Program-made: the position numbers and the translations under genes
Shown here: positions 5,533 to 30,965 of the stretch, one piece after another
How the letters are laid out: each line of letters opens with the position of its first letter
Numbering within the stretch: the stretch's first letter is position 1
Notes under the pieces: model-generated
Told to the model about the DNA's origin: nothing
Seen by the model: the letters and a program-made list of their open reading frames with translations, nothing else
The model's database searches: none
DNA from: Candidatus Methylomirabilis limnetica
Lineage (GTDB): Bacteria > Methylomirabilota > Methylomirabilia > Methylomirabilales > Methylomirabilaceae
Assembly (NCBI RefSeq): GCF_003044035.1
Contig: NZ_NVQC01000007.1
Location: 1 to 32,000, forward strand
Length of the DNA stretch: 32,000 bases
Direction: 5' to 3'

Positions 5533-5696
5533 TTGGTCTATCTGGTCTGTTTGGTCTATCTGGTCTGTTTGGTCTATCTGGTCTGTTTGGTCTATCTGGT
5601 CTGTTTGGTCTATCTGGTCTGTTTGGTCTATCTGGTTTAGCTGGTCCGTTTGGTCTTGACCAAACGACGAAACAGACGAGATAGACCAGATAGACG
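5533..5696 (+). repeat. 14 x 9-bp (7 x 18-bp) tandem array plus inverted arm
   Basis: Units TTGGTCTAT/CTGGTCTGT alternate from 5533 to 5658; the last three are degenerate (CTGGTTTAG, CTGGTCCGT, TTGGTCTTG). The array is followed by GACCAAACGACGAAACAGACGAGATAGACCAGATAGAC (about 5657-5696), an imperfect reverse complement of the units. Confidence 0.9.
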
Positions 5697-5722
5697 CCAT
5701 AGACATTTTCAGAGGAAGGCGT

Positions 5723-8245
5723 ATGAAAGCCGTTATTATGGCCGGCGGATTCGGAACGCGACTGCGTCCGCTAACGATCAGCATCTCCAAGCCGATGATC
5801 CCAATGGCCACCAAGCCGATGATGGAGCATATTGTGGCACTGCTCAAGAATCACGGCTTTGACGATCTCATCACCCTCCTCTACTTCCAGCCAGAGGTCA
5901 TCGAGCGCTACTTCGGCGACGGTAGCGAATTCGGCGTCAAGATGGTCTATGCCACTGCTACCGAGGACTACGGCACAGCCGGAGCGGTCAAAAACGCCGA
6001 GGCCTTTCTCGACGATACCTTCCTGATCATCAGTGGCGACCTCCTCACTGATTTTGATCTCACGGAGGCGGTCAAGTTTCACAAGGATCATGGCGCCCTA
6101 GCCACCATCGTCTTAACCAGGGTCGAGAACCCGCTCCAGTACGGTGTGGTCATCACGTCTCACGACGGCCGCGTCACACACTTCCTGGAGAAGCCGAGCT
6201 GGAGCGAGGTCTTTAGCGATACCGTGAATACCGGAATCTATATCCTCGAGCCCGAGGTACTCGATCTGATCCCGCCTGGGAAGTCGTTCGACTTTAGCCG
6301 CGATCTATTCCCGAAGCTCTTGAATGAGGGCCGCGCGCTATACGGCTATGTGGCGACCGGGTACTGGAAGGACGTGGGCGATCTGATCGAGTACCGCCTT
6401 GCGCATCGGGATATCCTGGCCGGTATGGTGAAGGTCGCACTTCCAGGGAAGCTGGTGGAGGGACTTGACAAGCCGATCTGGCTTGGGGAGGGGAGTCGCG
6501 TCGATTTCACCGCGTCGCTGAAGGGCGGCGTCCTGATCGGCAAACACACGCAGGTCGGGCCAAATGTTCATATCACCCGCAGCGTCATCGGCGACAACTG
6601 CGTCATCGAGGAGGGGGCCGTCATCGTTGGATCGGTCCTCTGGAATAACGTCTTTATCGGCCCCCGCGCCATCCTGAAGGAGAACATTGTCGGCCGTGGA
6701 AGCGAGATTAAGGCGCACGCTCACCTCTTTGAGGGTGCGTTAATCAGTGATCAGTGTAAGGTCGGCGAGGGGTCAGTGGTCAAGGCCGACGTGAAGGTCT
6801 GGCCCCATAAGGTGGTGGAGGACGGGGCCATCCTGGCCACCAGTTTGGTCTGGGGGCAGAAGTGGTCCCGTTCTCTGTTCGGGGCCTACGGTGTGACCGG
6901 GTTGGCTAATCTTGAGATCTCGCCTGAGTTTGCGGCCAAGCTCGGGGCCTGCTTTGGGGCAACTCTCCGGATGGGAGCGATCGTCCGCACCAGCCGTGAT
7001 TGTCACCAGGCCTCTCACATGGTCAAGCGCGCGATCATCTGTGGCCTCCACTCCGCCGGCGTGGATGTGCACGATTTTCGCATCGTCCCTATCCCGGTGG
7101 TCCGGTACCAGATGGGCGCTCGCGGTGCGGTGGGTGGTGTGCACGTCCGAAAGTCCCCCTTCGATCCCGAGCTGATCGACATCCAATTCTTTGATGAGCG
7201 CGGAATGGATATCTCGTCCAGTTGGGAAAAGAGCATCGAACGATCCTTCTTTCGGGAAGACTTCCGCCGCGCGAAGGTCGATGAGATTGGCCACCTCTCT
7301 CTCCCTGTGTACGACGTGGAATTGTACCAGGAGGGGGTGCTGAGCGTTATCGATCGGGGTGCGCTGCGCGGTCGTGGCTTCCGGATCGTGATCGACTACG
7401 CCTATGGTTCATCCTCCATTATCTTCCCCCAGATCCTCGGGAGGTTGGGGTGTGAGGTGATTGCGCTGAACGCGTACCTGGATCCGGGTAGAATCACCAA
7501 GAGCGCGGAGGGCTTCCATCGTTCATTGCAGCAACTGTCGGAGATTGTCAGAAGTCTGGGAGCTGACCTGGGGATCATGCTTGATACCGGGGCAGAGAAG
7601 ATCTTCGTTGTGGATGACAATGGCGACCTGTTGAGCGATGACCTGGCATTAGCCCTCATGGCCCTACTGGTAATGCGGACCCATCCTCCGGGGGTGATCG
7701 GCGTTCCCATCACCGCCAGCTCAGCCATTGAGGATCTGGCCCGCGACCAGGGCTTTCGGGTCATCAGGACGAAAACGGCCCCGCGTGCGTCGACAGAAGC
7801 GGCAACCCAGGAGGGTGTCATCTTCGTGGGCGACGGTCTCGGCGGTTTCATCTTCTCGCAGTTCCAACCGGTCTTTGACGGAATGCTCGCTACCCTCAAG
7901 CTCCTGGAAATGTTAGCCGCTCAGGATATTCGGTTGCATCAACTGATCCGCTCCATTCCGCAGCGTTTCCGGTGCCACGAGCATATCCCATGCCCCTTGG
8001 AGCGAAAGGGCGGGACGATGCGGGCACTCATCGCCGATACTGCAGATGAGCAGGTCGAACTGGTGGATGGGGTAAAGGTCCATCTTGGCAATGACTCCGT
8101 GATCCTCTATCCGGATCAAGACCGGCCGTATTTCCACATCATCGCCGAAGCCGGTACGCTCGCGCGGGCAGAGGCCCACTTGGCTCGGTATCGAGAAGTC
8201 CTCGCGCTCTGCATGAAGAGTAGCCTGCCAGAGGTCGCTCCGTGA
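5723..8245 (+). CDS. sugar-1-phosphate nucleotidyltransferase (mannose-1-P guanylyltransferase-like) fused to a left-handed beta-helix region and a phosphohexomutase-like C-terminal region
   Basis: RBS GAGGAAGG. N-terminus MKAVIMAGGFGTRLRPLT (GxGTRxxPxT signature). Hexapeptide-like stretch IGDNCVIEEGAVIVGSVLWNNVFIGPRAILKENIVGRGSEIK. The C-terminal ~450 aa are collinear with PGM/PMM domains, but with divergent catalytic loops (see findings). Confidence 0.88.
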   Translation: MKAVIMAGGFGTRLRPLTISISKPMIPMATKPMMEHIVALLKNHGFDDLITLLYFQPEVIERYFGDGSEFGVKMVYATATEDYGTAGAVKNAEAFLDDTFLIISGDLLTDFDLTEAVKFHKDHGALATIVLTRVENPLQYGVVITSHDGRVTHFLEKPSWSEVFSDTVNTGIYILEPEVLDLIPPGKSFDFSRDLFPKLLNEGRALYGYVATGYWKDVGDLIEYRLAHRDILAGMVKVALPGKLVEGLDKPIWLGEGSRVDFTASLKGGVLIGKHTQVGPNVHITRSVIGDNCVIEEGAVIVGSVLWNNVFIGPRAILKENIVGRGSEIKAHAHLFEGALISDQCKVGEGSVVKADVKVWPHKVVEDGAILATSLVWGQKWSRSLFGAYGVTGLANLEISPEFAAKLGACFGATLRMGAIVRTSRDCHQASHMVKRAIICGLHSAGVDVHDFRIVPIPVVRYQMGARGAVGGVHVRKSPFDPELIDIQFFDERGMDISSSWEKSIERSFFREDFRRAKVDEIGHLSLPVYDVELYQEGVLSVIDRGALRGRGFRIVIDYAYGSSSIIFPQILGRLGCEVIALNAYLDPGRITKSAEGFHRSLQQLSEIVRSLGADLGIMLDTGAEKIFVVDDNGDLLSDDLALALMALLVMRTHPPGVIGVPITASSAIEDLARDQGFRVIRTKTAPRASTEAATQEGVIFVGDGLGGFIFSQFQPVFDGMLATLKLLEMLAAQDIRLHQLIRSIPQRFRCHEHIPCPLERKGGTMRALIADTADEQVELVDGVKVHLGNDSVILYPDQDRPYFHIIAEAGTLARAEAHLARYREVLALCMKSSLPEVAP

Positions 8246-10053: not shown

Positions 10054-10083
10054 GTTGCGATGCCAGCCTACAGCCTGAACACC

Positions 10084-10239
10084 TATTCAGGTAGATAGAC
10101 TGTAGGAACGCGCACAGATGAGCCAGGCGTTTTTCTGAATGCGACGCGAAAACGATGGATACCGAAAAGGTTCCGAGCGCCTTGATTCGGTCCATGCGCA
10201 ATGGCTAACAGCCTTCAGCCTAAACACCTGCGTAGTTAC
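10084..10239. repeat. copy A of a ~165-bp inverted-repeat-bounded (MITE-like) element; left end replaced or truncated
   Basis: Collinear with 10696-10862 at high identity by eye (..AGGTAGATAGACTGTA..AACGCGCAC.GATGAGCCAGGCGTTTT..AATGCGACGCGAA..GATGGA.ACCGAAAAGGTTC..CGCCTTGATTC.GTCC.TGCGCAA..CTAACAG.CTTCA..CCTAAA.CACCT..GTAGTTAC). Confidence 0.8.
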
Positions 10240-10695: not shown

Positions 10696-10862
10696 GTAAC
10701 TACTTAGGTAGATAGACTGTAATAACGCGCACGGATGAGCCAGGCGTTTTCTAAATGCGACGCGAACATGATGGAGACCGAAAAGGTTCTGGACGCCTTG
10801 ATTCAGTCCGTGCGCAAAGACTAACAGTCTTCAACCTTCAGCCTAAAACACCTTGTAGTTAC
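10696..10862. repeat. copy B of the ~165-bp MITE-like element (complete ends)
   Basis: The ends GTAACTAC (10696-10703) and GTAGTTAC (10855-10862) are exact inverted repeats. Sub-terminal AGGTAGATAGACTGT / ACAGTCTTCAACCTTCAGCCTAAAACACCT belong to the GGCTGAA repeat family. The core is shared with copy A. Confidence 0.8.
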
Positions 10863-14784: not shown

Positions 14785-16044
14785 ATGCGTTGGACCAGAT
14801 CACTGATCCCGACACTGAAAGAAGAACCTGCAGAAACAGAGGCGGTCAGCCATACACTGATGATTCGGGCCGGCTTGGTTCGACAGCTCGCGGCTGGAAT
14901 TTACGTCTACCTGCCACTAGGGCAGCGGGTGATGGACAAGGTGAACGGTATCATCCGTGAAGAGATAAATGGGATCGGCGGGCAGGAGATCACTATGCCG
15001 ATCCTGCACCCGGCCGAGCTGTGGCAGCAAACCGGACGATGGACGACCATCGGCGAGGAGATGTTTCGGCTGCAAGATCGTGGCAAGCGTCAAATGTGTC
15101 TGGGGATGACCCACGAAGAGGTCATTGCCTGGCTTGCAGCCCGGGAGATTCGATCTTACCGGGATCTCCCGCAGATCTGGTACCAGATCCAGACCAAGCT
15201 CCGAGACGAGGCAAGGCCCAAGAGCGGTATCCTCCGGACGCGGGAGTTCCTGATGAAGGACTCCTACTCGCTGGACCGGGATGATGAGGGGCTGGAGAGG
15301 AGCTACGAGCTTCACAAGGAAGCCTATCGTCGCATCGTGACGCGGTGCGGCCTGTCCTGTCACGTCGTCGAGAGCGACCCGGGAATGATGGGCGGTGCAA
15401 CCGCGCACGAATTTATGGCGCCAAGCGAAGCCGGAGAGGATGAGGTTGCCCTCTGTGAGCGCTGCAGCTACTCGGCAAATGTCGAGCTCGCCATCTCAAA
15501 GCGATGTCCGCATTGCGAGGGCAGCCTGCGGACCCTGCGCGTGATCGAGGTCGGGAACATCTTCAAGCTCGGAACAAAATATTCGACTGCTCTCAAGGCG
15601 ATGTATCTAAATGAGGCCGGAGAGGAGCGCCCCATCGTCATGGGAAGCTACGGGATCGGGCCAGCCCGGATCGCCGCCGCCGCGATCGAGCAGCACCATG
15701 ATGAGCTGGGAATCATCTGGCCCACGACCATCGCGCCCTTTCAGCTCCATCTGCTGCCGGTGAACGTGCGCGATCAGAAGTTGGTTGAGATGACCGAGGC
15801 TATCTATACCCAATTTATAAGGGAGCGAATAGAGGTCCTGTACGATGACCGGGATGAGCGCCCAGGCGTGAAATTCAAGGACGCCGATCTGCTTGGCCTG
15901 CCCCTTAGAATGACCGTCGGAAACCGGGCCCTCAAGGAGGGAATGGTTGACTTGAAGGTACGAAAGACCGGCGAGGAGGTACAGGTCCCGCTATCGGAAG
16001 CGGTCTCCAGGGCACAAACCCTTCTTTCCCGCCTCACCGATTAA
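14785..16044 (+). CDS. proS: prolyl-tRNA synthetase, bacterial-type but lacking the INS editing domain
   Basis: MRWTRSLIPTLKEEPAETEAVSHTLMIRAGLVRQLAAGIYVYLPLG is a typical bacterial ProRS N-terminus. Class II core and anticodon-binding C-terminus are present. Only 419 aa. Confidence 0.9.
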   Translation: MRWTRSLIPTLKEEPAETEAVSHTLMIRAGLVRQLAAGIYVYLPLGQRVMDKVNGIIREEINGIGGQEITMPILHPAELWQQTGRWTTIGEEMFRLQDRGKRQMCLGMTHEEVIAWLAAREIRSYRDLPQIWYQIQTKLRDEARPKSGILRTREFLMKDSYSLDRDDEGLERSYELHKEAYRRIVTRCGLSCHVVESDPGMMGGATAHEFMAPSEAGEDEVALCERCSYSANVELAISKRCPHCEGSLRTLRVIEVGNIFKLGTKYSTALKAMYLNEAGEERPIVMGSYGIGPARIAAAAIEQHHDELGIIWPTTIAPFQLHLLPVNVRDQKLVEMTEAIYTQFIRERIEVLYDDRDERPGVKFKDADLLGLPLRMTVGNRALKEGMVDLKVRKTGEEVQVPLSEAVSRAQTLLSRLTD

Positions 16045-16125
16045 CGTTACCAAAAGTAGAGACCCTAGAACCACGTCTCCGCTGGGGGGTCCATGACTTT
16101 AAGCCTATTCGGCTATGAGCTAAAG

Positions 16126-16436
16126 GTAGCTACTCAGGTAGATAGGCTGAAGGCTGAAGGTTTTTAGGGACAAATAATGCGTGATCATACAAAACTCCGG
16201 AAAGGTCTTAAATCTACTGGGGGCTCATTCCCCGCGGATTGCCGCGAGTTCGTCATACCGGCGGAAGCCGGTATCCAGAGGGCCCGACTGGATTCCGTGT
16301 CAAGCACGGAATGACTGGCCAGAACAGAAGACGCTACTCAGCGGCTTACCGCGGGGTAGTTCATTGGCTTGATTTGTGCCTTGCGAGATAATTCAGAGCC
16401 TTCAGCCTTCAGCCTGAACACCTGAGCAGTTACTAC
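16126..16436. mobile_element. 311-bp MITE-like element with ~38-bp terminal inverted repeats and a nested second repeat
   Basis: Left end GTAGCTACTCAGGTAGATAGGCTGAAGGCTGAAGG (16126-). Right end CCTTCAGCCTTCAGCCTGAACACCTGAGCAGTTACTAC (-16436), whose reverse complement is GTAGTAACTGCTCAGGTGTTCAGGCTGAAGGCTGAAGG. The interior 16226-16316 carries a ..GTCATACCGGCGGAAGCCGGTATCCAG..CTGGATTCCGTGTCAAGCACGGAATGAC.. palindrome of the same type as 19391-19480. No transposase is present. Confidence 0.6.
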
Positions 16437-16480
16437 TAAAGTTTGACGACGTTAGCAGCCTGCTACGCCCTTGCCGCCCT

Positions 16481-17260
16481 TTAGGTCTGCTTCTCCCGCC
16501 TGCGGTTCATGTAGTAGTTTACGCCGAATACTAGAGCGCAAATACCCAGCAATGTGGTAGCCAGCTGGAACCCCAAATTTGAGAAAAACCAGGGGAGGCG
16601 GCTGTGCGCCCTTACCTCCAGGCCCACGGAAAAGGGGAAGCTGTAGGTAGGATCAACGGCGCGCATATCGGCTTCCGTAGGGTCGGTCCCGGGCCCGTGA
16701 GTGTGAGTTACCCGCTGCCATTCCCCAACCTCGGAGCCGCGATGAGGCTTGTGGGCAATACCAGGGCCCACCTTTTCCAACGTCATGAGGGCGATGTAGT
16801 GACCGGCCTTGGGGATCTCGGTATCGACCCTTACCGTACCATCACCGTAAACAGCCGGCGGACGAGAGAAGATGGCGTGAGAGTGTTCACTGCCGCCCTT
16901 GTCCTCGTGGGCCTCAACAGCCTCCACAATCCGGACCGAGATGGGCAGCACTCGCATCTCTTCATTGTAAAGGTCAAAGGCCACCGACAACTTACCCGCC
17001 TTCGGGACCCCCTCGCAGTAGGACTGAAATTCCTTCTTCACCTCCACCGAACCCACTTCGTGTAACAAGGGAACCATGCCTGCGCCCACAAGCTCCTGAT
17101 AGGCCGTGAAGTGAACGGTATAATGGCCCTTCACGGCGGTGCAGGCATCTGCTGCATCCCAGTCGCCCATCACATCACCACCGCCATGGCCAAGGGCCTG
17201 AGATGCCCAGACAACCGGCGCAAGCACTACCCAGAATAACAACATCAAGCGTTTCATCAT
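16481..17260 (-). CDS. exported His-rich protein with C-terminal membrane anchor, unknown function
   Basis: Start moved to ATGATG at 17260 (GGGAG RBS). Signal peptide MMKRLMLLFWVVLAPVVWASQALG|HGGGD. His clusters (AHEDKGGSEHSHA, HKPHRGSE, THTHGPG). C-terminal TM LGFQLATTLLGICALVFGVNYYM followed by RRREK. Confidence 0.65.
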   Translation of the reverse strand: MMKRLMLLFWVVLAPVVWASQALGHGGGDVMGDWDAADACTAVKGHYTVHFTAYQELVGAGMVPLLHEVGSVEVKKEFQSYCEGVPKAGKLSVAFDLYNEEMRVLPISVRIVEAVEAHEDKGGSEHSHAIFSRPPAVYGDGTVRVDTEIPKAGHYIALMTLEKVGPGIAHKPHRGSEVGEWQRVTHTHGPGTDPTEADMRAVDPTYSFPFSVGLEVRAHSRLPWFFSNLGFQLATTLLGICALVFGVNYYMNRRREKQT

Positions 17261-21506: not shown

Positions 21507-21560
21507 GCAACTTTTTCCTTGCATCCGTCGAGGGGTTCCACTACCGTAAACTTACACAAG

Positions 21561-21626
21561 AAAGGAGGTGATCCAGTGGGCTTACCGTTAACCATCTGGA
21601 CAACATGTGAGGTGATTGTAACGTAG
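21561..21626 (+). other. 15-nt perfect Shine-Dalgarno/16S-3'-end complement followed by a 16-codon ORF
   Basis: AAAGGAGGTGATCCA (21561-21575) is the exact reverse complement of the conserved 16S terminus TGGATCACCTCCTTT. GTG at 21576 opens MGLPLTIWTTCEVIVT* (stop 21624-21626). CCTCCT at 21633-21638 could pair back onto AGGAGG. Confidence 0.3.
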
Positions 21627-21812
21627 GTGTGTCCTCCTCACCGGATCGACTGCCTGAGGATTTCCGCCTACGGAATTCTAGCAGTCACCGAGCCCTGAAG
21701 CCCTGGCCTTGTCCAGCCAGGCCCCGCGATGCTGTCACGGGGAAGCGCTTCGGGGCTTTCTTATTTGAAGAAGCTAGCAGGCCGCATGGGAGATGGCGTA
21801 AAGCCCTCCACT

Positions 21813-22379: not shown

Positions 22380-24494
22380 CTACTCCATCTTCGGCCCGCG
22401 CCCTCCTGATGAGGGGGTGGGAGACGATTTCAACAGATCTTCCAACGATTGAACCCTGCTCCTGAACTGCTCGCTCATAAGTTTGCCCTCTTCCGGGGTT
22501 CCAATGACATGAGGTGTGATCAGGATGAGGAGCTCGTCCCTATTGAGCACCTCTTTGGTTCCCCGGAACAGATACCCGAACAGCGGGATCGAGCTTAGAA
22601 ACGGGATACCGGTGTAGTCTTTCGTCTTGTCCGTCCGGATGATCCCTCCAATGAGTAGCGACTGGCCATCCTGCACCACCACCGCCGTCTTTGTTGTCAC
22701 CTTGTTGAACGAGGCACCACCCTCAGAAGCAGTAGCAGTGCTGGCAATACTCGTGTTCTCAGTCTCTATGTCCAGCGAGACCAATCGCTTCTCATTCACG
22801 TGAGGCTTGATCTTCAGGATAATCCCGATGTCCTTGCGCTGGAAGGTGCTGAAAAGATTGGAGGAGGTGTTTGTCGCGTTACCAGTAGTGGTCCCTAGAG
22901 ACTGTACTCCGGTCGGAATCGGGACCTCCTGACCGATCTGGATATTCGCCTCCTTGTTGTTGGCCGTAAGCAGGTGAGGGTTGGCCAGGACCTCTGCTTT
23001 CCCCACAGTAACAAGATTATTCACGACCACGCGATACTTATCCTTGTCTACAAAAGCAAGAGTAAGACCGGTCGCGGGAGCTTTGCCGTCCTTCACAACT
23101 CCAGTGATCGCGGTCGCGAGGGGCGCGACGCCATATGCCGACGTAATGAGGAATTGACCACTCCGGATAATCTCCTCCAAGCTAAAGTTAAAACTGTCGT
23201 TCAAGCTGATCCGAGCGAGCATGAGCTCCATCAACACCTGTTTTGGGACAATGTCGATCTGCTTGATCGTCGCCTCGATGATCTCATAGTTGCGCGGCGA
23301 AGTCTTGATGATCAGCGCATTGTTCGCCTCATCCGAGACGATAGTTACGTCGCCCACGATCTCCCCTGGCGCCGCCTCGGTGCCTGGCGGTAGCGCCGCC
23401 CCAGGCGGGGGTGGCGGCTGGCCCGGGGGTGGGGGAGGAGGGGGTGGCGGCGGCGCACCAGGTCCCGCCGGGGGCTGGCCAGGCCTTGCCGGTACAGCCG
23501 CGCCACGCACCAGATCTCGGCGGCCGTACAAGGTGTTGAGTGTATTCGCCAGCTCGGCGGCCTTGGCGTTCTCCACGAAATAGACGAAGATTCGCTGGAT
23601 ATTGTCTCGCTTGGATGGGATGTCCAGCGCCCTGACAGTGTCAAGTAGCCGATTGATTGTTGAGCTGAAACCGGCGATGATCAGGCTGTTGGTCTCCTTG
23701 TGGACCAGCATCTTGGCACCCTTGGACAGGAACGGCTGCAGGATCTTTGTCATCTCGTCGGCGGAAAGGTGGTCGAGGTGGACAATCTGGGTTACGTAAC
23801 GTTCCCGCTCTTCAGTACGCTCTTTTCCCATCTGCACGTCCTCAGGTTCCTGCTGGGCGACCGCGATCGGGACAATTTTGTAATATGCGCCCTCCTTCAC
23901 TGCAATCAGATTATTGACCCCCAGCACCGATTCCATGATGGAGAAAACCTCGCTGGAAGGAACCCTGGTCGTCGTCCGCATCGTGACATTCGCCTTGACG
24001 CCAGGGCCAAGAATAAAGTTGATCCCGGTGATATCGGCAATCGATCGGAGGACCAGCTCCAGATCTGCGTTGTCAAAGTTTAGTGAGACATACTGGGGTG
24101 CTCCAGGCTGGGCAGGCACTCCTTTAGCCGCGCCACCAAGGCGAGCTCCCGCTAGGGGAACAGGAGCACCTTCTATCACGCCTGTCGAAGGCAAGGGAAC
24201 AGGTTTGGGCACTGCCTCCTGGGAAGAAGCGGCGTCTTCCGTATCTTCGGCGTCTTCTGCCTCTTCTGCCTCTTCTGGGTCTTCCACTTCTTGCTCCGCC
24301 TCGACTTTATGCGGACGCGCGGGTGGCGTGGCAATTATCGGAGAAGCAGGTACCGGCGTCGGCGCCGGGGCCACGACCTTCGAAGGCGACAGCTCCGCCT
24401 CGGCTCCGGAACGTCCTAACGCCTGAAAGGCGGTACAAGCGGGAAGGAACACCGCAACCGTTAAGATCACAAGAAGAGTTCTTCGGGTAGCCAA
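22380..24494 (-). CDS. gspD: type II secretion system secretin GspD
   Basis: N0-like VSLNFDNADLELVLRSIADITGINFI. Repeated N-domains (..NALIIKTSPRNYEIIEATIKQID). Secretin core (ANPHLLTANNKEANIQIGQEVPI ... VVVQDGQSLLIGGII ... GIPFLSSIPLFGYLFR). Possible lipobox FLPAC. Confidence 0.92.
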   Translation of the reverse strand: MATRRTLLVILTVAVFLPACTAFQALGRSGAEAELSPSKVVAPAPTPVPASPIIATPPARPHKVEAEQEVEDPEEAEEAEDAEDTEDAASSQEAVPKPVPLPSTGVIEGAPVPLAGARLGGAAKGVPAQPGAPQYVSLNFDNADLELVLRSIADITGINFILGPGVKANVTMRTTTRVPSSEVFSIMESVLGVNNLIAVKEGAYYKIVPIAVAQQEPEDVQMGKERTEERERYVTQIVHLDHLSADEMTKILQPFLSKGAKMLVHKETNSLIIAGFSSTINRLLDTVRALDIPSKRDNIQRIFVYFVENAKAAELANTLNTLYGRRDLVRGAAVPARPGQPPAGPGAPPPPPPPPPPGQPPPPPGAALPPGTEAAPGEIVGDVTIVSDEANNALIIKTSPRNYEIIEATIKQIDIVPKQVLMELMLARISLNDSFNFSLEEIIRSGQFLITSAYGVAPLATAITGVVKDGKAPATGLTLAFVDKDKYRVVVNNLVTVGKAEVLANPHLLTANNKEANIQIGQEVPIPTGVQSLGTTTGNATNTSSNLFSTFQRKDIGIILKIKPHVNEKRLVSLDIETENTSIASTATASEGGASFNKVTTKTAVVVQDGQSLLIGGIIRTDKTKDYTGIPFLSSIPLFGYLFRGTKEVLNRDELLILITPHVIGTPEEGKLMSEQFRSRVQSLEDLLKSSPTPSSGGRGPKME

Positions 24495-24563: not shown

Positions 24564-25232
24564 CTACATTTCCTGCTGCGTCGCTCTCCGCTCCCGCCGC
24601 TCTTGTCGCTCCCTCAACCGCTCCGTCCGGCGTCTCTGTATCTCTTCTCTATCAGGAACCGCGTCAGGAACAGGCGCCTGGATTGGCCCGGACGATTGTG
24701 CAGGAACTCCAGCCTGAACGGCAACAGGCGCTGACGCCTTTGCGGGAGCCGCGGCTGCAGACTCAATGGCCGCCTTTAGGGCGAGATCATGCAGCGTGTC
24801 GCCGCGCTTGAAGATGATCCGATCCTCCTTGATCTCGGTAATTACCCCGCCAGCCACCTCCTGACCAATCGTGTAAATATTCGCTTTCCCTTTGTCGCTC
24901 AGGATGGCCCGGCGCTCATGGTCGCTCAGTATCGTACCGACAAGCGTTGGAAGCGGCGGGGGGGGCGGAGGGGGCGGACTTGCGCCCTGCGGCCGCACCG
25001 GCATAGGCGGCGGCTGCTTGAACGGATTCTTTTCCAGCAAGCCGTCGAACTGCGTGAGGGGTGGTCGAGCCGTCTGGCTATAGGCGAGCGCCTCCGCCTC
25101 TTGCAATGGCTTCGTGACGGCTGAGCCTGGGACCGAGGCGACAGGAGAGACCCACGCCTTCACGACGGCGGCAGCGATCAACACCGCGACAAGGCCCAAG
25201 ATGAGATTCAGAAGCCGCAGCGGTCTACGCAC
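24564..25232 (-). CDS. gspC: GspC-like / PilP-like secretin-interacting inner-membrane protein
   Basis: N-terminal TM (LLNLILGLVAVLIAAAVV), Pro-rich linker (PPPPPPPPLP), then an HR/PilP-like beta segment LVGTILSDHERRAILSDKGKANIYTIGQEVAGGVITEIKEDRIIFKRGDTLHDLAL. No PDZ; Arg/Glu-rich tail. Position between gspM and gspD. Confidence 0.5.
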   Translation of the reverse strand: MRRPLRLLNLILGLVAVLIAAAVVKAWVSPVASVPGSAVTKPLQEAEALAYSQTARPPLTQFDGLLEKNPFKQPPPMPVRPQGASPPPPPPPPLPTLVGTILSDHERRAILSDKGKANIYTIGQEVAGGVITEIKEDRIIFKRGDTLHDLALKAAIESAAAAPAKASAPVAVQAGVPAQSSGPIQAPVPDAVPDREEIQRRRTERLRERQERRERRATQQEM

Positions 25233-25797: not shown

Positions 25798-27230
25798 GGC
25801 CGTTTCTCCTTCCTGGCCTCAAGGAGCACCTTGATCTGAAACTCTTGCCCCTCAGCGCCTCGCTGGGCCACCGGAGAGGTGAATTGAGCGTTTTCGAAGA
25901 GTGGCGACTGCTCCATAATCGAGATCAGGTCGGAGGCAGAACCGGTGATGAAGCCGCCAATCTTGACTTCTTGCTTCTCGACCGTAAAGAGCGTAAGGGT
26001 CATACCCTTCGGCAGAATCTGGAACAATTCGCGTAGCACATCCAGCTTCCTGACCTCCTCTCGGTCAATGGTCTCCAGGGTGGTGATTTGGCCGGCGAGC
26101 GCCCCCACCTCTCCCTTGAGCAACTCCACCTTGGCTGCTTCAGCCTGCACCCGATCCAGCGTGACAGTCAGCTCTGCTAAAGCCCGGCGCTCCTGACTCG
26201 CCCCATTCACCAGATACGCGAGGCCCAAGGCTACAATGAGGGCCAAGAGTCGAAAGGTCATCGCAAGACCGGGATTGTGGCGAGGGGGAGCCAGCTCTTT
26301 GGGGAGCAGGTCAATATCGAGCGGGAGCACAACGAGCCCGTGAAGCGCAAGCCCAACGGCCGCCCCGAGAGAATGGGCCGCCTGAGGATCTACGCCTCTT
26401 GCCTTGATTCGCTGAAAGGGCTGGAGGAACTCCACTTCAAGACCGGTCCGTTCGGCCAGGTGGCGCAACAGATCTCCCCTGCCCGCGCCCGTTCCTGCGA
26501 TAGAGATTCGCCCTGCCTGCTGGCCGCCATTGGCTTCGAGGTGAGCGAAAAGGGCAGAGATCTCCGGTATCAGCGCATCGAGGGGCACGGCCTGGCCAAG
26601 GGTCAGGTATCGGGAGCATCGAAAGATTCCTTGTTTGGTCAGACTCAGCTCAGCCTCTCCGTCCCGCAGATCGATGAGGACCCTCAGGGGCTCCGCACCT
26701 CGGTCCTGGTTGTAGAGGAGGGCGTTGAGCGATGCGACCGTCGAGACGCCCACAGCGGTCGGCGTGATCCCTGCCTCATGCAGCAGAGCGAGGTATCTAC
26801 TGACCTCCTCTTTCCTGGCCGCGGCCAACAGGACAGTGGCCTTTTCGGCATCGCGCTCAAGCACCTGGAAGTCGTACTGCGCCTCCTCTGGAGGGAAGGG
26901 GACATGTCGTTCAACCTCGTAGTCCAGGACCCCCCGGAGCTCCTCTTCGCCTACCGCCGGCATGCTCACCGATCGCATCGTGACGAAGCGTCGAGGCAGG
27001 CCAACCGTTACGAAGGCGGGTCGCTTGGGTAACCGAGCCAAGAGGCCGGACAGCTTCTCTTTGAGGACTTCCGGCCTATCTTTCTCTTCGACCGGTAGCT
27101 CCTCGATGCCATGATCGAGGAGCTGGACTCTCCCAAACGCTTTGCTTAACAAAACATGGCAGAGCAGGCTACCACGGATATCGATGCCCAGGCTGACTTT
27201 CGATCTTGGGATCAGCTCGCTGAGCGTCAT
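25794..27230 (-). CDS. gspL: type II secretion system protein GspL (PilM-like actin-fold domain + TM + PilN-like domain)
   Basis: N-terminal LGIDIRGSLLCHVLL (PilM/GspL-like), central TM (FRLLALIVALGLAYLV), a coiled coil and a periplasmic domain. ATGA overlap with gspK. Confidence 0.7.
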   Translation of the reverse strand: MTLSELIPRSKVSLGIDIRGSLLCHVLLSKAFGRVQLLDHGIEELPVEEKDRPEVLKEKLSGLLARLPKRPAFVTVGLPRRFVTMRSVSMPAVGEEELRGVLDYEVERHVPFPPEEAQYDFQVLERDAEKATVLLAAARKEEVSRYLALLHEAGITPTAVGVSTVASLNALLYNQDRGAEPLRVLIDLRDGEAELSLTKQGIFRCSRYLTLGQAVPLDALIPEISALFAHLEANGGQQAGRISIAGTGAGRGDLLRHLAERTGLEVEFLQPFQRIKARGVDPQAAHSLGAAVGLALHGLVVLPLDIDLLPKELAPPRHNPGLAMTFRLLALIVALGLAYLVNGASQERRALAELTVTLDRVQAEAAKVELLKGEVGALAGQITTLETIDREEVRKLDVLRELFQILPKGMTLTLFTVEKQEVKIGGFITGSASDLISIMEQSPLFENAQFTSPVAQRGAEGQEFQIKVLLEARKEKRP

Positions 27231-28450
27231 ACGCCTCCATGTCTCGGGTCAAGGCTCCAGAGCCGTACAGAGAGCTTCGGCCGGCCTGGCGTCCCGTCAT
27301 TTCGGAGGATGGCGGCCACGCGAACCGTAAGCCTTGATCCCGTCATCCGCCCAGCCGATTTGACGGAGAAGTTTTTCGCGCTCACTGTAGCCGTCTGACT
27401 GAGTTCTGCGATTATCTGCGTCGGGTTCGCCGGGCCCGACTGGCCTCCAGGCACCACTGCGAATCCCTGTCGACCGCCCCCTAAGATGGCGCGGATAAGC
27501 TCAGTGAACTCCTGCGGGTTCTTAAATGGAAGTTGGGTACGCCGGTCGAGAACGGCCTGGACCTCTGCCGCCGTCAGCCCGAGCGCCATCAAGACCTCGG
27601 AACTGGCGGTATTGACATTCACCATCCCGGAGGAATAGATCGACAAGTGCCTGGCGACTCCGAGGGATTCACCGTGCTGGAGCTCACGTTCCCATGGAGG
27701 TTGCGCCTCCAGTTCAGTCCGCCGCTGCGCGCCAGCGACGTTGCCGTACAGGATCTCCGGGGTCATCCCTTTGATCAGGAGCAGTTCGTCGATAGTCTCG
27801 AAGTCCCCGTTCTTCGCCCGATATGGGCTGGGGAGGGACAGGTAGTAGTCGTCTTCGACGCCACTCAAGCGATGTAGAGTGTCGACGTCGCGCCAGTCCT
27901 GGATCGAATCGACGATGGTGGAGAGGAGCTTCTCATCCGTGACGCCGGAGTTAGAGAACAGCCGGCGAAGCATCGCATCGTATTGCGGGCTGATCTGCCC
28001 GTTCAGGGGAATCTTGCTCTCCTCATCCCTGACCGCCACCCGGTAATGCCCCCCGCCCAGCGCCACATTCTCATAGGCGGCCGGATTGGTACGCCAGTGC
28101 TCGTCCAGAGCGTCGTAGCTCTTCGAGTCTGGCGGGACATCACGGTCGGCATTGATGATCTCCGCCGCCGCCCGGTAGACACCGGCCTCCGCCAAGTAGT
28201 AGGCTTCCGCTTCCTGCCTGAAGTTGCCGGCCGCGGCCAGCTCTGTGCGCATCGAAAAGGTGAAGGCTGTGAACACGACACTCAGAAATGTCAGGATCCA
28301 AAGTACGACCACAAGCGCCAATCCACGCTCCGAATGAAGACGATGTTTCGAGTTTCGAGTTTCGAGTTTCGGGTAAGGGCGACCCGCCGGGTTGCCCCTA
28401 TTGAAACGCCACACTCGAAACTCGAAACGCGAAACTCGAAACGTTTTCAT
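27227..28450 (-). CDS. gspK: minor pseudopilin GspK
   Basis: ERG|LALVVVLWILTFLSVV prepilin-like N-terminus. Large body with the helix-hairpin-helix-like VNVNTASSEVLMALGLTAAEVQAVLDRR typical of GspK. The start is ambiguous (see findings). Confidence 0.8.
   Translation of the reverse strand: MKTFRVSRFEFRVWRFNRGNPAGRPYPKLETRNSKHRLHSERGLALVVVLWILTFLSVVFTAFTFSMRTELAAAGNFRQEAEAYYLAEAGVYRAAAEIINADRDVPPDSKSYDALDEHWRTNPAAYENVALGGGHYRVAVRDEESKIPLNGQISPQYDAMLRRLFSNSGVTDEKLLSTIVDSIQDWRDVDTLHRLSGVEDDYYLSLPSPYRAKNGDFETIDELLLIKGMTPEILYGNVAGAQRRTELEAQPPWERELQHGESLGVARHLSIYSSGMVNVNTASSEVLMALGLTAAEVQAVLDRRTQLPFKNPQEFTELIRAILGGGRQGFAVVPGGQSGPANPTQIIAELSQTATVSAKNFSVKSAGRMTGSRLTVRVAAILRNDGTPGRPKLSVRLWSLDPRHGGV
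28345..28443. repeat. heptamer-arm palindrome inside the gspK 5' end
   Basis: (GTTTCGA)x3-GTTTCGG at 28345-28373. Central AGGGCGACCCGCCGGGTTGCCCCT hairpin. Right arm CTCGAAACTCGAAACGCGAAACTCGAAACG at 28414-28443. Confidence 0.85.
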
Positions 28451-29280
28451 AGCGTTCGCCCTACTTGCACTGGAAAGACCAGCGGCGGCAGGATCAACTC
28501 CCGGAGCCCAGACGATTTCGTCTGTCGAATCGTGAGCGTGAGCTCCACAGCCAACGGCATACGATCAGAGCCCTTCAGGGCGCGCTGCCCCTGTGCAGGG
28601 ACGAATCTCCGAGCTGGGGGCTGCGGCGTCTCGTCTTGGGAAGGATCCCAAGAATCGCGCCAGGCGGGGGGAAGATTTTCCTCCGGCCTGCCCTCCGGCA
28701 CCAGGTACCGAAAGCGCGCCTGCAACGCTCGTTCATCGAGCGGTTTGACTGAATCCTCGAACGAGGCGGATGCCTGAGTAGCAAGAGGGTAGCTTCCTGT
28801 GGCCACCAGTCCCCGACCAGACTCGACGGCATAGGCCACGATCCTGACCATGTGACTGAATGGTTCGGCCCCGTAGCTCTGTGGAAGGGTAGCAAACTTG
28901 AGGGAGTCCGACTTGCCATGAAAGGCGATGACATCCTTATCCTGCTCTTTCACACGCAAAGGGTGTATCATCGTAAGGTCTCGTGCGAGGGTCTCGACAA
29001 GGGTGCGATTGCGCTGGCTCTCTTCCGCCCGCGCCTCCCCGCTCTCCCACGACTTGGCTCCAACCTGGATCGCACCAAGTACGGCGACGAAGATAAGCGA
29101 CAGGATCGTCAGCGAGATCAAGACCTCGATCAAGGTGAAGCCGTGCGGAGTGCGGAGTTCCAGGTTTCGGGTTTCGGGTTTCGGGTTTCGGGTTTCGGGA
29201 GTCCTGCTCTTGTCAGAAACCTGGAACGTGGAACTCGAAACTAGAAACTCGAAACTCGAAACTTGCTTACTGCACCACAC
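28447..29280 (-). CDS. gspJ: minor pseudopilin GspJ
   Basis: HG|FTLIEVLISLTILSLIF prepilin motif with Glu5. Size and operon position. GTG start at 29280 overlaps the gspI end by 14 nt. Stop overlaps the gspK ATG (ATGA). Confidence 0.75.
   Translation of the reverse strand: MWCSKQVSSFEFLVSSSTFQVSDKSRTPETRNPKPETRNLELRTPHGFTLIEVLISLTILSLIFVAVLGAIQVGAKSWESGEARAEESQRNRTLVETLARDLTMIHPLRVKEQDKDVIAFHGKSDSLKFATLPQSYGAEPFSHMVRIVAYAVESGRGLVATGSYPLATQASASFEDSVKPLDERALQARFRYLVPEGRPEENLPPAWRDSWDPSQDETPQPPARRFVPAQGQRALKGSDRMPLAVELTLTIRQTKSSGLRELILPPLVFPVQVGRTL
29157..29262. repeat. heptamer-arm palindrome inside the gspJ 5' end
   Basis: GTTCCA-(GGTTTCG)x5 at 29157-29197. GAAACCTGGAAC (29216-29227) pairs with 29157-29168. 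This is followed by GAACTCGAAACTAGAAACTCGAAACTCGAAAC (to 29262). Confidence 0.85.
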
Positions 29281-29752
29281 GCGTCTGACCCAACTTCTTC
29301 TCGTCCACCATCATCCTCAGGGTCTGAAGGTTCACGGATTTCTCTCCACGGCGGCTAGGCCACGTGACGCGGACCTGGACACTGTAGAGCCGACCGGGGA
29401 GTTCTTCCTCCTGTTCGAGCGGCTGGACCTCAGAGGCCCAACGGAATCCCCCACCGAACTCCCCTGTTTCGGCCGAGCCTGTGAGGTTCCGCATTACGGC
29501 GACCTCGGCCATTTTCTGCCGAGCCAGCAGGACCGCCTGAGTGTAATCTTCGGACGCCTTCGCAGAGCGAACCCCAGCGGCTAGCAGCTCCATGGCCAAG
29601 GCGAACCCGATACCGAGAATGGCCAAGGCAACAATGACCTCGAGCAGCGTGAAGCCATGCTCCGTACGGCGTGCGGAGCATGGCAAATCCCCCCGTGCCC
29701 CCCTTTTGTAAAGGGGGGGGTGGGGGGATTTCGCGCTTCGCACTATGTTCAC
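29267..29752 (-). CDS. gspI: minor pseudopilin GspI
   Basis: HG|FTLLEVIVALAILGIGF prepilin motif. About 125-aa mature size. GTG start overlaps the gspH stop (GTGA). Alternative TTG start at 29686. Confidence 0.8.
   Translation of the reverse strand: MNIVRSAKSPHPPLYKRGARGDLPCSARRTEHGFTLLEVIVALAILGIGFALAMELLAAGVRSAKASEDYTQAVLLARQKMAEVAVMRNLTGSAETGEFGGGFRWASEVQPLEQEEELPGRLYSVQVRVTWPSRRGEKSVNLQTLRMMVDEKKLGQTRVVQ
29684..29733. repeat. nested G/C-run palindrome inside the gspI 5' end (twin of 22267-22314)
   Basis: CAAATCCCCCCGTGCCCCCCTTTTGTAAAGGGGGGGGTGGGGGGATTTCG. Confidence 0.85.
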
Positions 29753-30303
29753 GCATTCTCTGCGGTGCTGATGCGAATCAACCCAACCGATGGATCCACA
29801 ACAATTCGATAGGCTCGCCCCTTCTCGTCAGAGAGGTCAATCGATCCACCCGTCGAGCTCCCCTGCGGAAAGAAGGCAATGGCGCCACGCTCATCTGACC
29901 GAAGGGGGCCGGTGGTGAGGAGAACGGACTTCAGGCTCACACCAGGCGGAAGAGAACGGACCCGAGCCTGCCGCATCTGAACCTGCTGTTCCGGGTCCTC
30001 AACCGTTGGAACCTGGTCGATGCCGCTCAGGCGGCCGACAATCCAGTCGGGTCCCCTCAACCAGTAGCGATTGGTCTGCCGGTCAAGCACCACCTCCACT
30101 ACATCCTGGTTGGCGATCGCCTGCGTTCTGGCAAACCGGCACAGGGCGGCGATATCCCTCGCCGAGGCCTTGAGTCGAGCCTGCCCGAATGGGTGGCTGA
30201 AGGCCGGTGCGACCAGCACGGTCACCAGCGTGAGAATGAACAGCACCACGGTAAGTTCGAGGAGCGTGAAGCCCCTCGTACCCCGCACTGGTCTATTGTT
30301 CAA
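29749..30303 (-). CDS. gspH: minor pseudopilin GspH
   Basis: MNNRPVRGTRG|FTLLELTVVLFILTLV, with a normal 11-aa leader. Size and position. Confidence 0.75.
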   Translation of the reverse strand: MNNRPVRGTRGFTLLELTVVLFILTLVTVLVAPAFSHPFGQARLKASARDIAALCRFARTQAIANQDVVEVVLDRQTNRYWLRGPDWIVGRLSGIDQVPTVEDPEQQVQMRQARVRSLPPGVSLKSVLLTTGPLRSDERGAIAFFPQGSSTGGSIDLSDEKGRAYRIVVDPSVGLIRISTAENA

Positions 30304-30793: not shown

Positions 30794-30874
30794 TCCCACG
30801 CTCAGCTCCTTTGCTCCATGCCCCATCTGTACGTATGTTCGCACCCCGCACCCCCTCCCTGCCTCTCCTCCCTT

Positions 30875-30929
30875 GTAGGGGCAGGCCTTGTGCCTGCCCA
30901 GAGCGGGCGACCACCAGGGTCGCCCCTAC
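30875..30929. repeat. double-hairpin palindromic repeat in the gspF-gspG spacer ('GRPPGSPLR' type)
   Basis: GTAGGGGCAGGCCTTGTGCCTGCCCAGAGCGGGCGACCACCAGGGTCGCCCCTAC. Two internal hairpins are closed by GTAGGGG/CCCCTAC. Related GGGCGACCC..GGGTTGCCCCT occurs at 28375-28399. Confidence 0.75.
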
Positions 30930-30965
30930 GTCGGCGAGGGTGGGGACGTACCCCGCAAACTGTAC

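Follow-up and report, generated by a model that had tools for sequence, protein, structure and literature searches.

A tandem-heptamer palindrome apparently translated as part of a long GspJ leader in Candidatus Methylomirabilis limnetica and its NC10 relatives

How is a minor pseudopilin gene translated when the DNA between the end of the preceding gene and its own prepilin-peptidase site is taken up by a palindrome of tandem heptamers? The question is raised by gspJ in a 32-kb stretch of the genome of Candidatus Methylomirabilis limnetica (phylum NC10, or Methylomirabilota), which we refer to in its entirety as the window. The minus strand of the window, from 22.4 to 32 kb, carries a type II secretion operon with the gene order gspF-G-H-I-J-K-L-M-C-D, as identified by Pfam, in which every called start from gspG to gspM overlaps the end of the preceding gene by 4 to 14 nucleotides (nt). 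An imperfect palindrome fills the 124 nt from the gspI stop codon to the Gly(-1) codon of gspJ; its arms are tandem heptamers, GTTTCGA-type units in one and five CCGAAAC units in the other. An earlier note on this DNA had claimed that gspJ is read from a GTG codon through this palindrome, that the prepilin leader would then be about 53 residues long, and that the repeat is tolerated there because the leader is cleaved off.

The gspJ coding sequence, defined by its open reading frame (ORF) and by Pfam, occupies positions 28447..29280 on the minus strand (as do all features given below unless the plus strand is named) and would encode 277 residues, comprising a 46-residue leader, Gly(-1), and a mature pseudopilin of 230 residues. 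Its most likely start is the GTG at 29278..29280, the sole canonical in-frame start upstream of the G|FTLIE cleavage motif: inspection of the ORF agreed with the earlier note that no ATG, GTG or TTG lies between this codon and the Gly codon, and the next in-frame stop upstream is a TGA at 29313. The GTG is 11 nt upstream of the TAA stop codon of gspI (29267..29269, within gspJ codons 4 and 5, from the ORF coordinates), so that gspJ overlaps gspI, which encodes another minor pseudopilin (29267..29752; ORF and Pfam N_methyl match), by 14 nt. Translation from the GTG yields, in agreement with the earlier note, MWCSKQVSSFEFLVSSSTFQVSDKSRTPETRNPKPETRNLELRTPH-G|FTLIEV, in which the leader starts MWCSKQ, ends LRTPH-G, and is hydrophilic (net charge about +2, counted from the sequence). 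It is shorter than had been claimed, with 46 residues, or 47 when Gly(-1) is included. The range of 29157-29280 given previously ends 15 nt before the Gly codon.

The predicted site of prepilin-peptidase cleavage, at the Gly(-1) codon (codon 47, 29140..29142), has the hallmarks of a class III signal peptide: the residues Gly(-1), Phe(+1) and Glu(+5), together with a hydrophobic helix about 21 residues long (H-G|FTLIEVLISLTILSLIFVAVL). The Pfam N_methyl match, which covers residues 46-68, scores 29.5 bits against a cutoff of 21.2, and G47, T49 and E52 are invariant across 44 homologues; the gspJ segment directly after the Gly(-1) codon (29077..29139) was delimited from the ORF, the comparison of homologues, and Pfam. 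The position of the gene between gspI and gspK is that expected of gspJ in a gsp operon. The product is identical to PTL37181.1/WP_107560934.1 of M. limnetica, a protein of 277 residues that NCBI annotates from the same GTG.

We took orthologous DNA from NC10 genomes and metagenomes independently of gene calls (the loci are labeled L001 and so on) and obtained 54 distinct gspJ junctions, 34 to 296 nt long, each running from the gspI stop codon to the gspJ Gly codon. The gspJ frame was stop-free in all 54, compared with 23 and 17 of the 54 for the two control frames, and 53 of them had a canonical start (ATG, GTG or TTG) in frame between -20 and +40 nt relative to the gspI stop, typically with the two genes arranged as ATGA, as TGATG, or with the 14-nt overlap found in the window. 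The start itself is conserved as GTG or ATG in L001, L004, L064, L065, L015, L006 and M. oxyfera; gene order around gspJ is identical in L001 and L002. No canonical start was present within 12 codons of Gly in 45 of the 54 junctions, and the predicted gspJ leaders across NC10 have a median length of 41 residues (range, 13 to 100). Many of these leaders cannot be aligned with one another, and the long leader is therefore not one inherited accident. Together, the open frame and the adjoining start support the proposal that gspJ is read from the GTG through the palindrome.

The flanking genes were compared in the same way. The gspK coding sequence (27227..28450; ORF, orthologous junctions, and Pfam) begins in the window with an ATG that overlaps the gspJ stop codon as ATGA, and across the loci such an overlap, ATGA or GTGA, is present everywhere except in L048. 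Its frame was open in 39 of 39 junctions (controls, 21 and 20 of 39), and the N-terminal extension of GspK ranges from 5 residues (MKRDGERG...) to about 48. At the gspH-gspI junction, the gspI frame was open in 33 of 34 cases (controls, 18 and 12 of 34). In-frame, repeat-bearing N-terminal extensions thus appear to recur in the neighboring gspI, gspJ and gspK genes across the phylum. Some database homologues of GspJ start after the G|F bond (9 of 120 in one set and many more in another), and we considered whether these represent closed frames; their DNA instead shows open leaders or contig ends. Protein starts past the cleavage site in the databases reflect the choices of gene callers and not biology.

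A comparison of substitutions on either side of the cleavage site bears on what is being conserved. Among gap-free leader pairs, substitutions are spread over the three codon positions as 51:59:61; of the codon changes, 93 are nonsynonymous and 31 synonymous, with no sign of amino acid constraint, whereas the first 150 nt of mature GspJ show 21:16:83. Given the third-position bias in the mature part and the even spread in the leader, it is the gene that appears to be under selection and not the sequence of the leader, of which only the frame and its openness seem to be kept. This pattern is what would be expected of a translated but disposable segment, and it fits the suggestion that the leader tolerates the repeat since it is cleaved off.

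The leaders also turn over rapidly. The heptamer unit varies by lineage (GTTTCGA/CCGAAAC, GTGCGAA/CCCCGCA, GTTCCAG/CCCGGAA and GTTCAAS), and the 3' arm always matches the 5' arm within one leader. Three loci (L060, L062 and L063, from JGI Ga0483975, Ga0364930 and Ga0364946, respectively) differ at 0 to 2 of 705 nt in mature gspJ and have three unrelated gspJ leaders; L060 and L062 share an identical gspK leader, and L063 ends before this point. Conversely, L037 and L042 have an identical leader, yet 18 of 116 fourfold-degenerate sites differ in the mature gene. With unrelated leaders on near-identical genes and an identical leader on diverged genes, divergence of the leader and of the mature gene is decoupled in both directions, and the two therefore have separate histories. 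Judged by L060, L062 and L063, the gspJ leader seems to behave like an exchangeable cassette. The window allele has a counterpart of its own in the independent genome L064 (GCA_049660845.1), whose 46-codon leader is the same apart from 4 nucleotide differences. The tract of low divergence between the two runs from about 29330 to 28970, covering the N-terminal helix as well, and recombination and constraint appear to explain it equally well.

From this evidence we infer, with a probability of roughly two in three, that gspJ is translated by coupled reinitiation at GTG 29280 with read-through of the hairpin, that its 46-residue leader is cleaved off despite its length, and that the operon tolerates the repeat without needing it. 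On reaching the end of gspI (the TAA at 29267-29269), ribosomes would reinitiate 11 nt upstream at the GTG, an instance of translational coupling; they would then unwind a weakened mRNA hairpin and read the palindrome, giving a prepilin with a hydrophilic, cytoplasmic leader; and prepilin peptidase would remove this leader at G|FTLIE to leave a normal mature GspJ. Peptides derived from the leader would include QVSSFEFLVSSSTFQVSDK and NPKPETR in M. limnetica and CQVLSEDHFELR and TQHSTLNTQHSEPSGEAGFTLLELLISLTIV... in M. oxyfera. No prepilin peptidase gene was found within the 32-kb window. The palindrome would belong to a class of heptamer-repeat and repetitive extragenic palindrome (REP)-like hairpins that turn over fast in the leader-coding segments of gspI, gspJ and gspK in the Methylomirabilota, and only stop-free, in-frame versions would persist unless a second start were available nearer the cleavage site. 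Since the genes of the operon overlap, a cleaved or cytoplasmic N-terminal extension would be the only place for such DNA.

Several observations weigh against this reading. The leaders of type II secretion minor pseudopilins normally have 6 to 8 residues. The 46 predicted if the GTG is used also exceed the published range for prepilin leaders, which is 6 to 26 residues, or about 15 to 30 for type IVb (PMC4471445). GTG 29280 has a weak Shine-Dalgarno sequence (duplex, -4.1 kcal/mol); the overlapping starts of gspI and gspK have Shine-Dalgarno sequences about as weak. The idea of mere tolerance is strained by the density of period-7 arrays, which is about 20 to 50 times higher in the leader segments (the three have 4 to 11 per kb, whereas the figure for the remaining 249 kb of these loci is 0.22 per kb), and by the good conservation of the palindrome relative to L064, in which 4 of 141 nt differ in the leader against 21 of 121 fourfold sites in the mature gene (p = 8e-5). 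Finally, L058 is the window allele minus exactly one heptamer, which puts the GTG out of frame and leaves a TTG at codon -7 as the only start; a short leader from this TTG is thus viable in a close relative. Similarly, the gspK array places the coupled ATG out of frame in L058 and L065 and in frame in L059.

One rival explanation is that gspJ initiates past the repeat, at the CTG at 29161..29163 or at another noncanonical codon, giving a leader of about 7 residues and leaving the palindrome as an untranslated intercistronic element. This CTG is codon 40 and, as had been claimed, the sole near-cognate alternative; it lies 7 codons before Gly and is probably an ordinary Leu codon. A 7-residue leader would fit normal pseudopilins, and at the homologous codon L058 and L065 have the canonical TTG (MEPSGEA|G), which in L058 is the only in-frame start. 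Judged by mature sequence, the window is closest to L013, L002, L003 and L052, in which the junction is a different one, a G/C-tract palindrome. Of these, L002, L003 and L052 also have a proximal start, ATG or GTG, two codons ahead of Gly, and the G-rich 3' arm before it in L002 and L003 reads as a possible Shine-Dalgarno sequence. Against this, the same allele in L064 has CTA in place of CTG (a synonymous Leu codon that cannot initiate), and L001 has ATA. It also lies in the 3' arm of the stem without a Shine-Dalgarno sequence (duplex, +0.1 kcal/mol compared with -4.1 for the GTG). Being neither conserved nor preceded by a Shine-Dalgarno sequence, the CTG leaves the GTG as the only conserved start candidate. 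Furthermore, a stop-free frame in all 54 junctions and a coupled start in 53, when 45 lack any start within 12 codons of Gly, is not a pattern expected of an untranslated spacer. We therefore regard initiation past the repeat as quite unlikely in the window.

A second rival reading concerns the structure of the palindrome itself. Both the repeat of five GGTTTCG units and its partner arm, described in the earlier note, were recovered by tandem-repeat and inverted-repeat detection. In the sense of the mRNA, the 5' arm consists of 4.6 copies of GTTTCGA (29232..29263, translated as VSSFEFLVSS; Tandem Repeats Finder and inverted-repeat output) and continues into an inner part with the variant units GTTCCAC and GTTCCAG (29218..29234; inverted-repeat output). 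A loop or spacer placed by the folds (29200..29217) separates it from the 3' arm of 5.3 CCGAAAC copies (29163..29199, translated as PETRNPKPETRN; Tandem Repeats Finder and folds), and a short third array, 2.3 copies of ACTCCGC (29143..29158; Tandem Repeats Finder), encodes the last leader residues, LRTPH. On the plus strand, Tandem Repeats Finder reports these arms as GGTTTCG x5.3 at 29163-29199 (100% match) and AACTCGA x4.6 at 29232-29263 (92% match). The two period-7 arrays, of 4.6 and 5.3 copies, lie within gspJ codons 6 to 40. Thirteen copies of the motif GTTTCGRGTTTCG are present in the window, where 0.02 are expected, and all 13 are at the gspI/gspJ and gspJ/gspK junctions.

When the arms pair in the mRNA, an A.C mismatch falls in each unit, and for this reason the mRNA-strand fold is no more than modestly stable (-54.5 kcal/mol; z = -2.3 relative to shuffled sequences). 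On the complementary (plus) strand the same positions become G.U pairs, one per unit, and the fold is correspondingly stronger (-77.4 kcal/mol; z = -5.95; 11 G.U pairs). The description of the element as a very stable RNA hairpin was thus overstated for the mRNA strand. The same asymmetry is found in the GTGCGAA and GTTCCAG unit families. As a general rule, better folding of the complementary strand holds for the window and for many heptamer-array loci and is false overall (29 versus 20 loci for gspJ and 12 versus 15 for gspK).

Might the palindrome be selected as a functional nucleotide hairpin, acting on the stoichiometry or decay of the gspI-J-K mRNA or as an antisense RNA or single-stranded DNA site, with its translation a side effect? 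A hairpin is present at the gspI-gspJ junction in most NC10 lineages despite complete turnover of its sequence, which together with the concentration of period-7 arrays in the leader segments, the conservation relative to L064, and the strand asymmetry speaks for such a function. On the other hand, the asymmetry is not universal, as just noted, and the low-divergence tract shared with L064 extends into the N-terminal helix, so that recombination accounts for it equally well. In the one alignable family (L007, L008, L027 and L038, gap-free in the leader), the covariation term is -0.12 kcal/mol, from four sequences only. Nor does the hairpin seem to hide the start codon so as to force coupling: pairing probability around the start (-12 to +29) is equal for gspK genes with long extensions, gspK genes with short extensions, and the repeat-free gspL. 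No terminator-like or promoter-like site was detected in 28200-29900 and no Rfam family reached its gathering score at the gspJ locus, leaving neither an intrinsic terminator, nor a promoter, nor a known RNA family as an identity for the element. We consider selection for a nucleotide hairpin very unlikely.

The frame-changing variants suggest a third rival, that the heptamer arrays are slipped-strand contingency switches in which the gain or loss of 7 nt toggles or tunes gspJ and gspK, which encode tip proteins of the pseudopilus, in the manner of opa. The gspJ arrays do have a unit that is not a multiple of 3 nt, and they lie in the 5' coding region; L058, one unit away from the window allele, has its GTG out of frame. 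In the gspK leader, the direct GTTCAAS array has 10 units in L065 (935-1013), 12 in L058 (1394-1483) and 18 in L059 (about 790-915), and, as described above, two of these related contigs have the coupled ATG out of frame and the third has it in frame. However, the unbiased locus set is in frame in 53 of 54 cases for gspJ and in 39 of 39 for gspK, and all of the out-of-frame cases retain a proximal in-frame start, which for gspK lies just past the array (GTG in L065 and ATG in L058), so that none is clearly OFF. These observations would fit an either/or rule under which either the coupled start shares the frame of the array or a proximal start exists. The arrays in the window are also short (4 to 5 units), unit numbers were taken from short-read assemblies and not from reads, and a free-living methanotroph has no obvious need for phase variation. 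A contingency switch is, on balance, unlikely.

A broader form of the slippage idea, which we likewise hold to be unlikely, treats the palindromes as phylum-wide exchangeable cassettes confined to the leader-coding segments of these three tip pseudopilin genes. Slippage would couple gspI, gspJ and gspK to upstream ribosomes or uncouple them, thereby tuning or switching the stoichiometry of the GspI-J-K tip, and the hairpin, which is best folded on the complementary strand, would promote slippage or exchange. An in-frame array would give coupled translation and a long leader, and an out-of-frame array would leave expression to a weak internal start alone.

Tandem repeats are easily miscounted in short-read assemblies, and the window GspJ falls below the gathering score of T2SSJ (PF11612), with 24.4 bits where 28 are required (a precomputed PF11612 match exists for most homologues). 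These facts could point to an artefact or a dead gene, that is, to an assembly error in the repeat that shifts the frame or to a gspJ pseudogene. Against this, the exact 277-residue protein is found on three contigs and an independent genome, L064, has the same 46-codon leader, which makes the assembly error that the earlier note had named as a potential refutation improbable; the arrays, 32 to 37 nt long, fit well within one read; mature gspJ has a strong third-position bias; and the operon around it is intact by Pfam. We consider an artefact or pseudogene extremely unlikely, and coupled translation from GTG 29280 through a tolerated repeat remains the reading we prefer.

Palindromes are also found in the leaders of the two adjacent genes in the window. 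The sibling element at the 5' end of gspK (28345..28442; inverted and tandem repeats) has arms of four GTTTCGA and four TCGAAAC units and is translated as FRVSRFEFRVWRFNRGNPAGRPYPKLETRNSK; it surrounds a degenerate copy of a REP-like core, and this part of GspK reads FRVSRFEFRVWRF-NRGNPAGRPY-PKLETRNSK. Its hairpin folds in the mRNA sense with -67.4 kcal/mol (z = -5.7). GspI would have a 32-residue leader before Gly(-1), read through two palindromes at 29654-29731 (MNIVRSAKSPHPPLYKRGARGDLPCSARRTEH|G): a hairpin made of a C tract and a G tract at 29685-29731, and another of 15 bp at 29654-29684 with its end at the Gly codon (together -72.2 kcal/mol in the mRNA sense; z = -7.8). An alternative gspI start exists at an in-frame TTG 10 codons before Gly.

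We also compared the leader palindromes with known systems. A search of the papers available to the analysis found no link between Methylomirabilis or NC10 and such repeats or long pseudopilin leaders. One comparable description, as relayed in a later paper (PMC10969869), is that of the Rickettsia palindromic elements (Ogata et al. 2000), palindromic repeats found in frame within genes. By that description the two are alike in being short, in frame, translated, and tolerated in permissive parts of proteins, and the palindrome in the gspJ leader is indeed an in-frame, stop-free palindromic repeat within an ORF. The Rickettsia elements differ, on the same account, in forming conserved families of about 100 to 150 bp with a conserved peptide in many unrelated genes. 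The NC10 elements, in contrast, have arms of simple 7-nt units with lineage-specific sequence and an apparently unconstrained peptide, and they occupy the leaders of three adjacent pseudopilin genes; they do not form a dispersed family with conserved sequence or peptide, the GTTTCGA-type motif being confined within the 32-kb window to the gspJ and gspK leaders.

In Neisseria opa, pentamer repeats (CTCTT) in the region coding for the signal peptide undergo slipped-strand phase variation. The opa and NC10 repeats share a unit not divisible by 3 in the part of the gene that encodes a cleaved leader, where a change in unit number shifts the frame. The NC10 repeats are distinct in that they are short, inverted, paired arrays that form a hairpin, nearly all lineages are in frame, and out-of-frame variants, known from assemblies, keep a second start.

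Heptanucleotide tandem repeats are known from cyanobacteria as short tandemly repeated repetitive (STRR) sequences. TAACTGA direct repeats occur in Beggiatoaceae and cyanobacteria, and a general excess of 7-nt simple repeats in prokaryotes is cited in the same work (PMC4679880). Like the NC10 arrays, they have 7-nt units in 2 to 6 copies, lie near translational starts, and are abundant in particular lineages. The TAACTGA arrays differ in carrying forward stop codons and in being nearly all intergenic and direct, with only one inverted pair reported (PMC4679880), whereas the arrays of the NC10 leaders contain no stop codon on either strand, pair into palindromes, and are located within ORFs. 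REP, BIME and REPIN sequences resemble the NC10 palindromes as GC-rich, imperfect hairpins present in many copies and often nested, and a REP-like core (GTAGGGGCGACCC...GGGTCGCCCCTAC) occupies the loop of many NC10 leader palindromes. REPs, however, are extragenic by definition, whereas the NC10 palindromes are read as protein (the element of the window lies inside the gspJ ORF), and arms made of heptamer arrays are not a REP feature.

Mycobacterial interspersed repetitive units (MIRUs) are intercistronic repeats with small ORFs that overlap the stop and start codons of the flanking genes. MIRUs and the NC10 repeats are both located at operon gene junctions with translational coupling preserved, but MIRUs are separate mini-ORFs and the NC10 repeat forms the leader of the gene downstream, to which it is fused. 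Among leaders themselves, there is a likeness to the long ones of type IVb prepilins and Flp pilins (15 to 30 residues; PMC4471445), which have a hydrophilic cytoplasmic leader, Gly(-1), a hydrophobic helix with Glu5, and removal by peptidase, the last being predicted for GspJ. The NC10 leaders are set apart by their length (46 residues in the window; across NC10 the median is 41 and the longest has 100), by being repeat encoded and hypervariable between near-identical genes, and by belonging to minor pseudopilins of type II secretion.

Should the long leaders prove real, lengths well beyond the textbook 6 to 30 residues are tolerated in class III signal peptides, and cytoplasmic extensions of 40 to 100 residues, whatever their sequence, would not stand in the way of membrane insertion or of cleavage by prepilin peptidase. 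This would be relevant to the prediction of pilins in metagenomes, where gene callers disagree on starts and some annotations begin inside the mature helix. The locus would also provide a natural case of a coding segment selected only for its frame and openness, which could calibrate tests for coding sequence, and an example of simple-sequence hairpin repeats colonizing an operon without intergenic space. The pattern of turnover poses the mechanistic question of how the repeats arise and are exchanged, and the variants that change the frame by a single unit make slipped-strand control of coupling directly testable.

Other repeats were seen in the same operon. The interval between gspF and gspG (30850-30945) has nested REP-like palindromes, GTAGGGGCAGGCC...GGCCTGCCC and GGGCGACC...GGGTCGCCCCTAC, upstream of gspG, for which the longest ORF would give a leader of about 40 residues and an internal ATG one of 23 residues. 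In-frame tandem repeats of 9 nt are present at 24232-24292, 24588-24613 and 24955-24978, in the part of gspD that encodes the N-terminal region of the secretin and in the gspC-like gene.

Elsewhere in the window, a perfect array of an 18-nt unit (TTGGTCTATCTGGTCTGT x5.8, with a 9-nt subperiod) followed by a shorter inverted partner (GACGAGATA-type, x4.3) occupies 5533-5704, directly upstream of the ATG at 5723 of an 840-residue ORF. Short inverted heptamer arrays, CTGAAGG and CCTTCAG, of 2.3 to 3 units flank other structures at 2797-2912 and 16144-16418, namely, a terminator-like hairpin at about 2858-2885 and an insert of about 235 nt that folds strongly (-180 kcal/mol for the region 16040-16485). 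Because they contain TGA, the units of these arrays would be ruled out of a coding region. Two copies of an element of about 140 nt, 86 to 90% identical and 616 nt apart, lie at 10083-10221 and 10700-10837 in a long stretch without an ORF of at least 130 residues and are flanked by CAGCCTTCAGCC-type heptamer motifs; the element could be a repeat resembling miniature inverted-repeat transposable elements or a small RNA. The only Rfam match above the gathering score in the window is on the plus strand at 21554-21764, a full-length match of 58.9 bits to RF02471 (Ms_IGR-5), an actinobacterial small RNA family that is unexpected in an NC10 genome.

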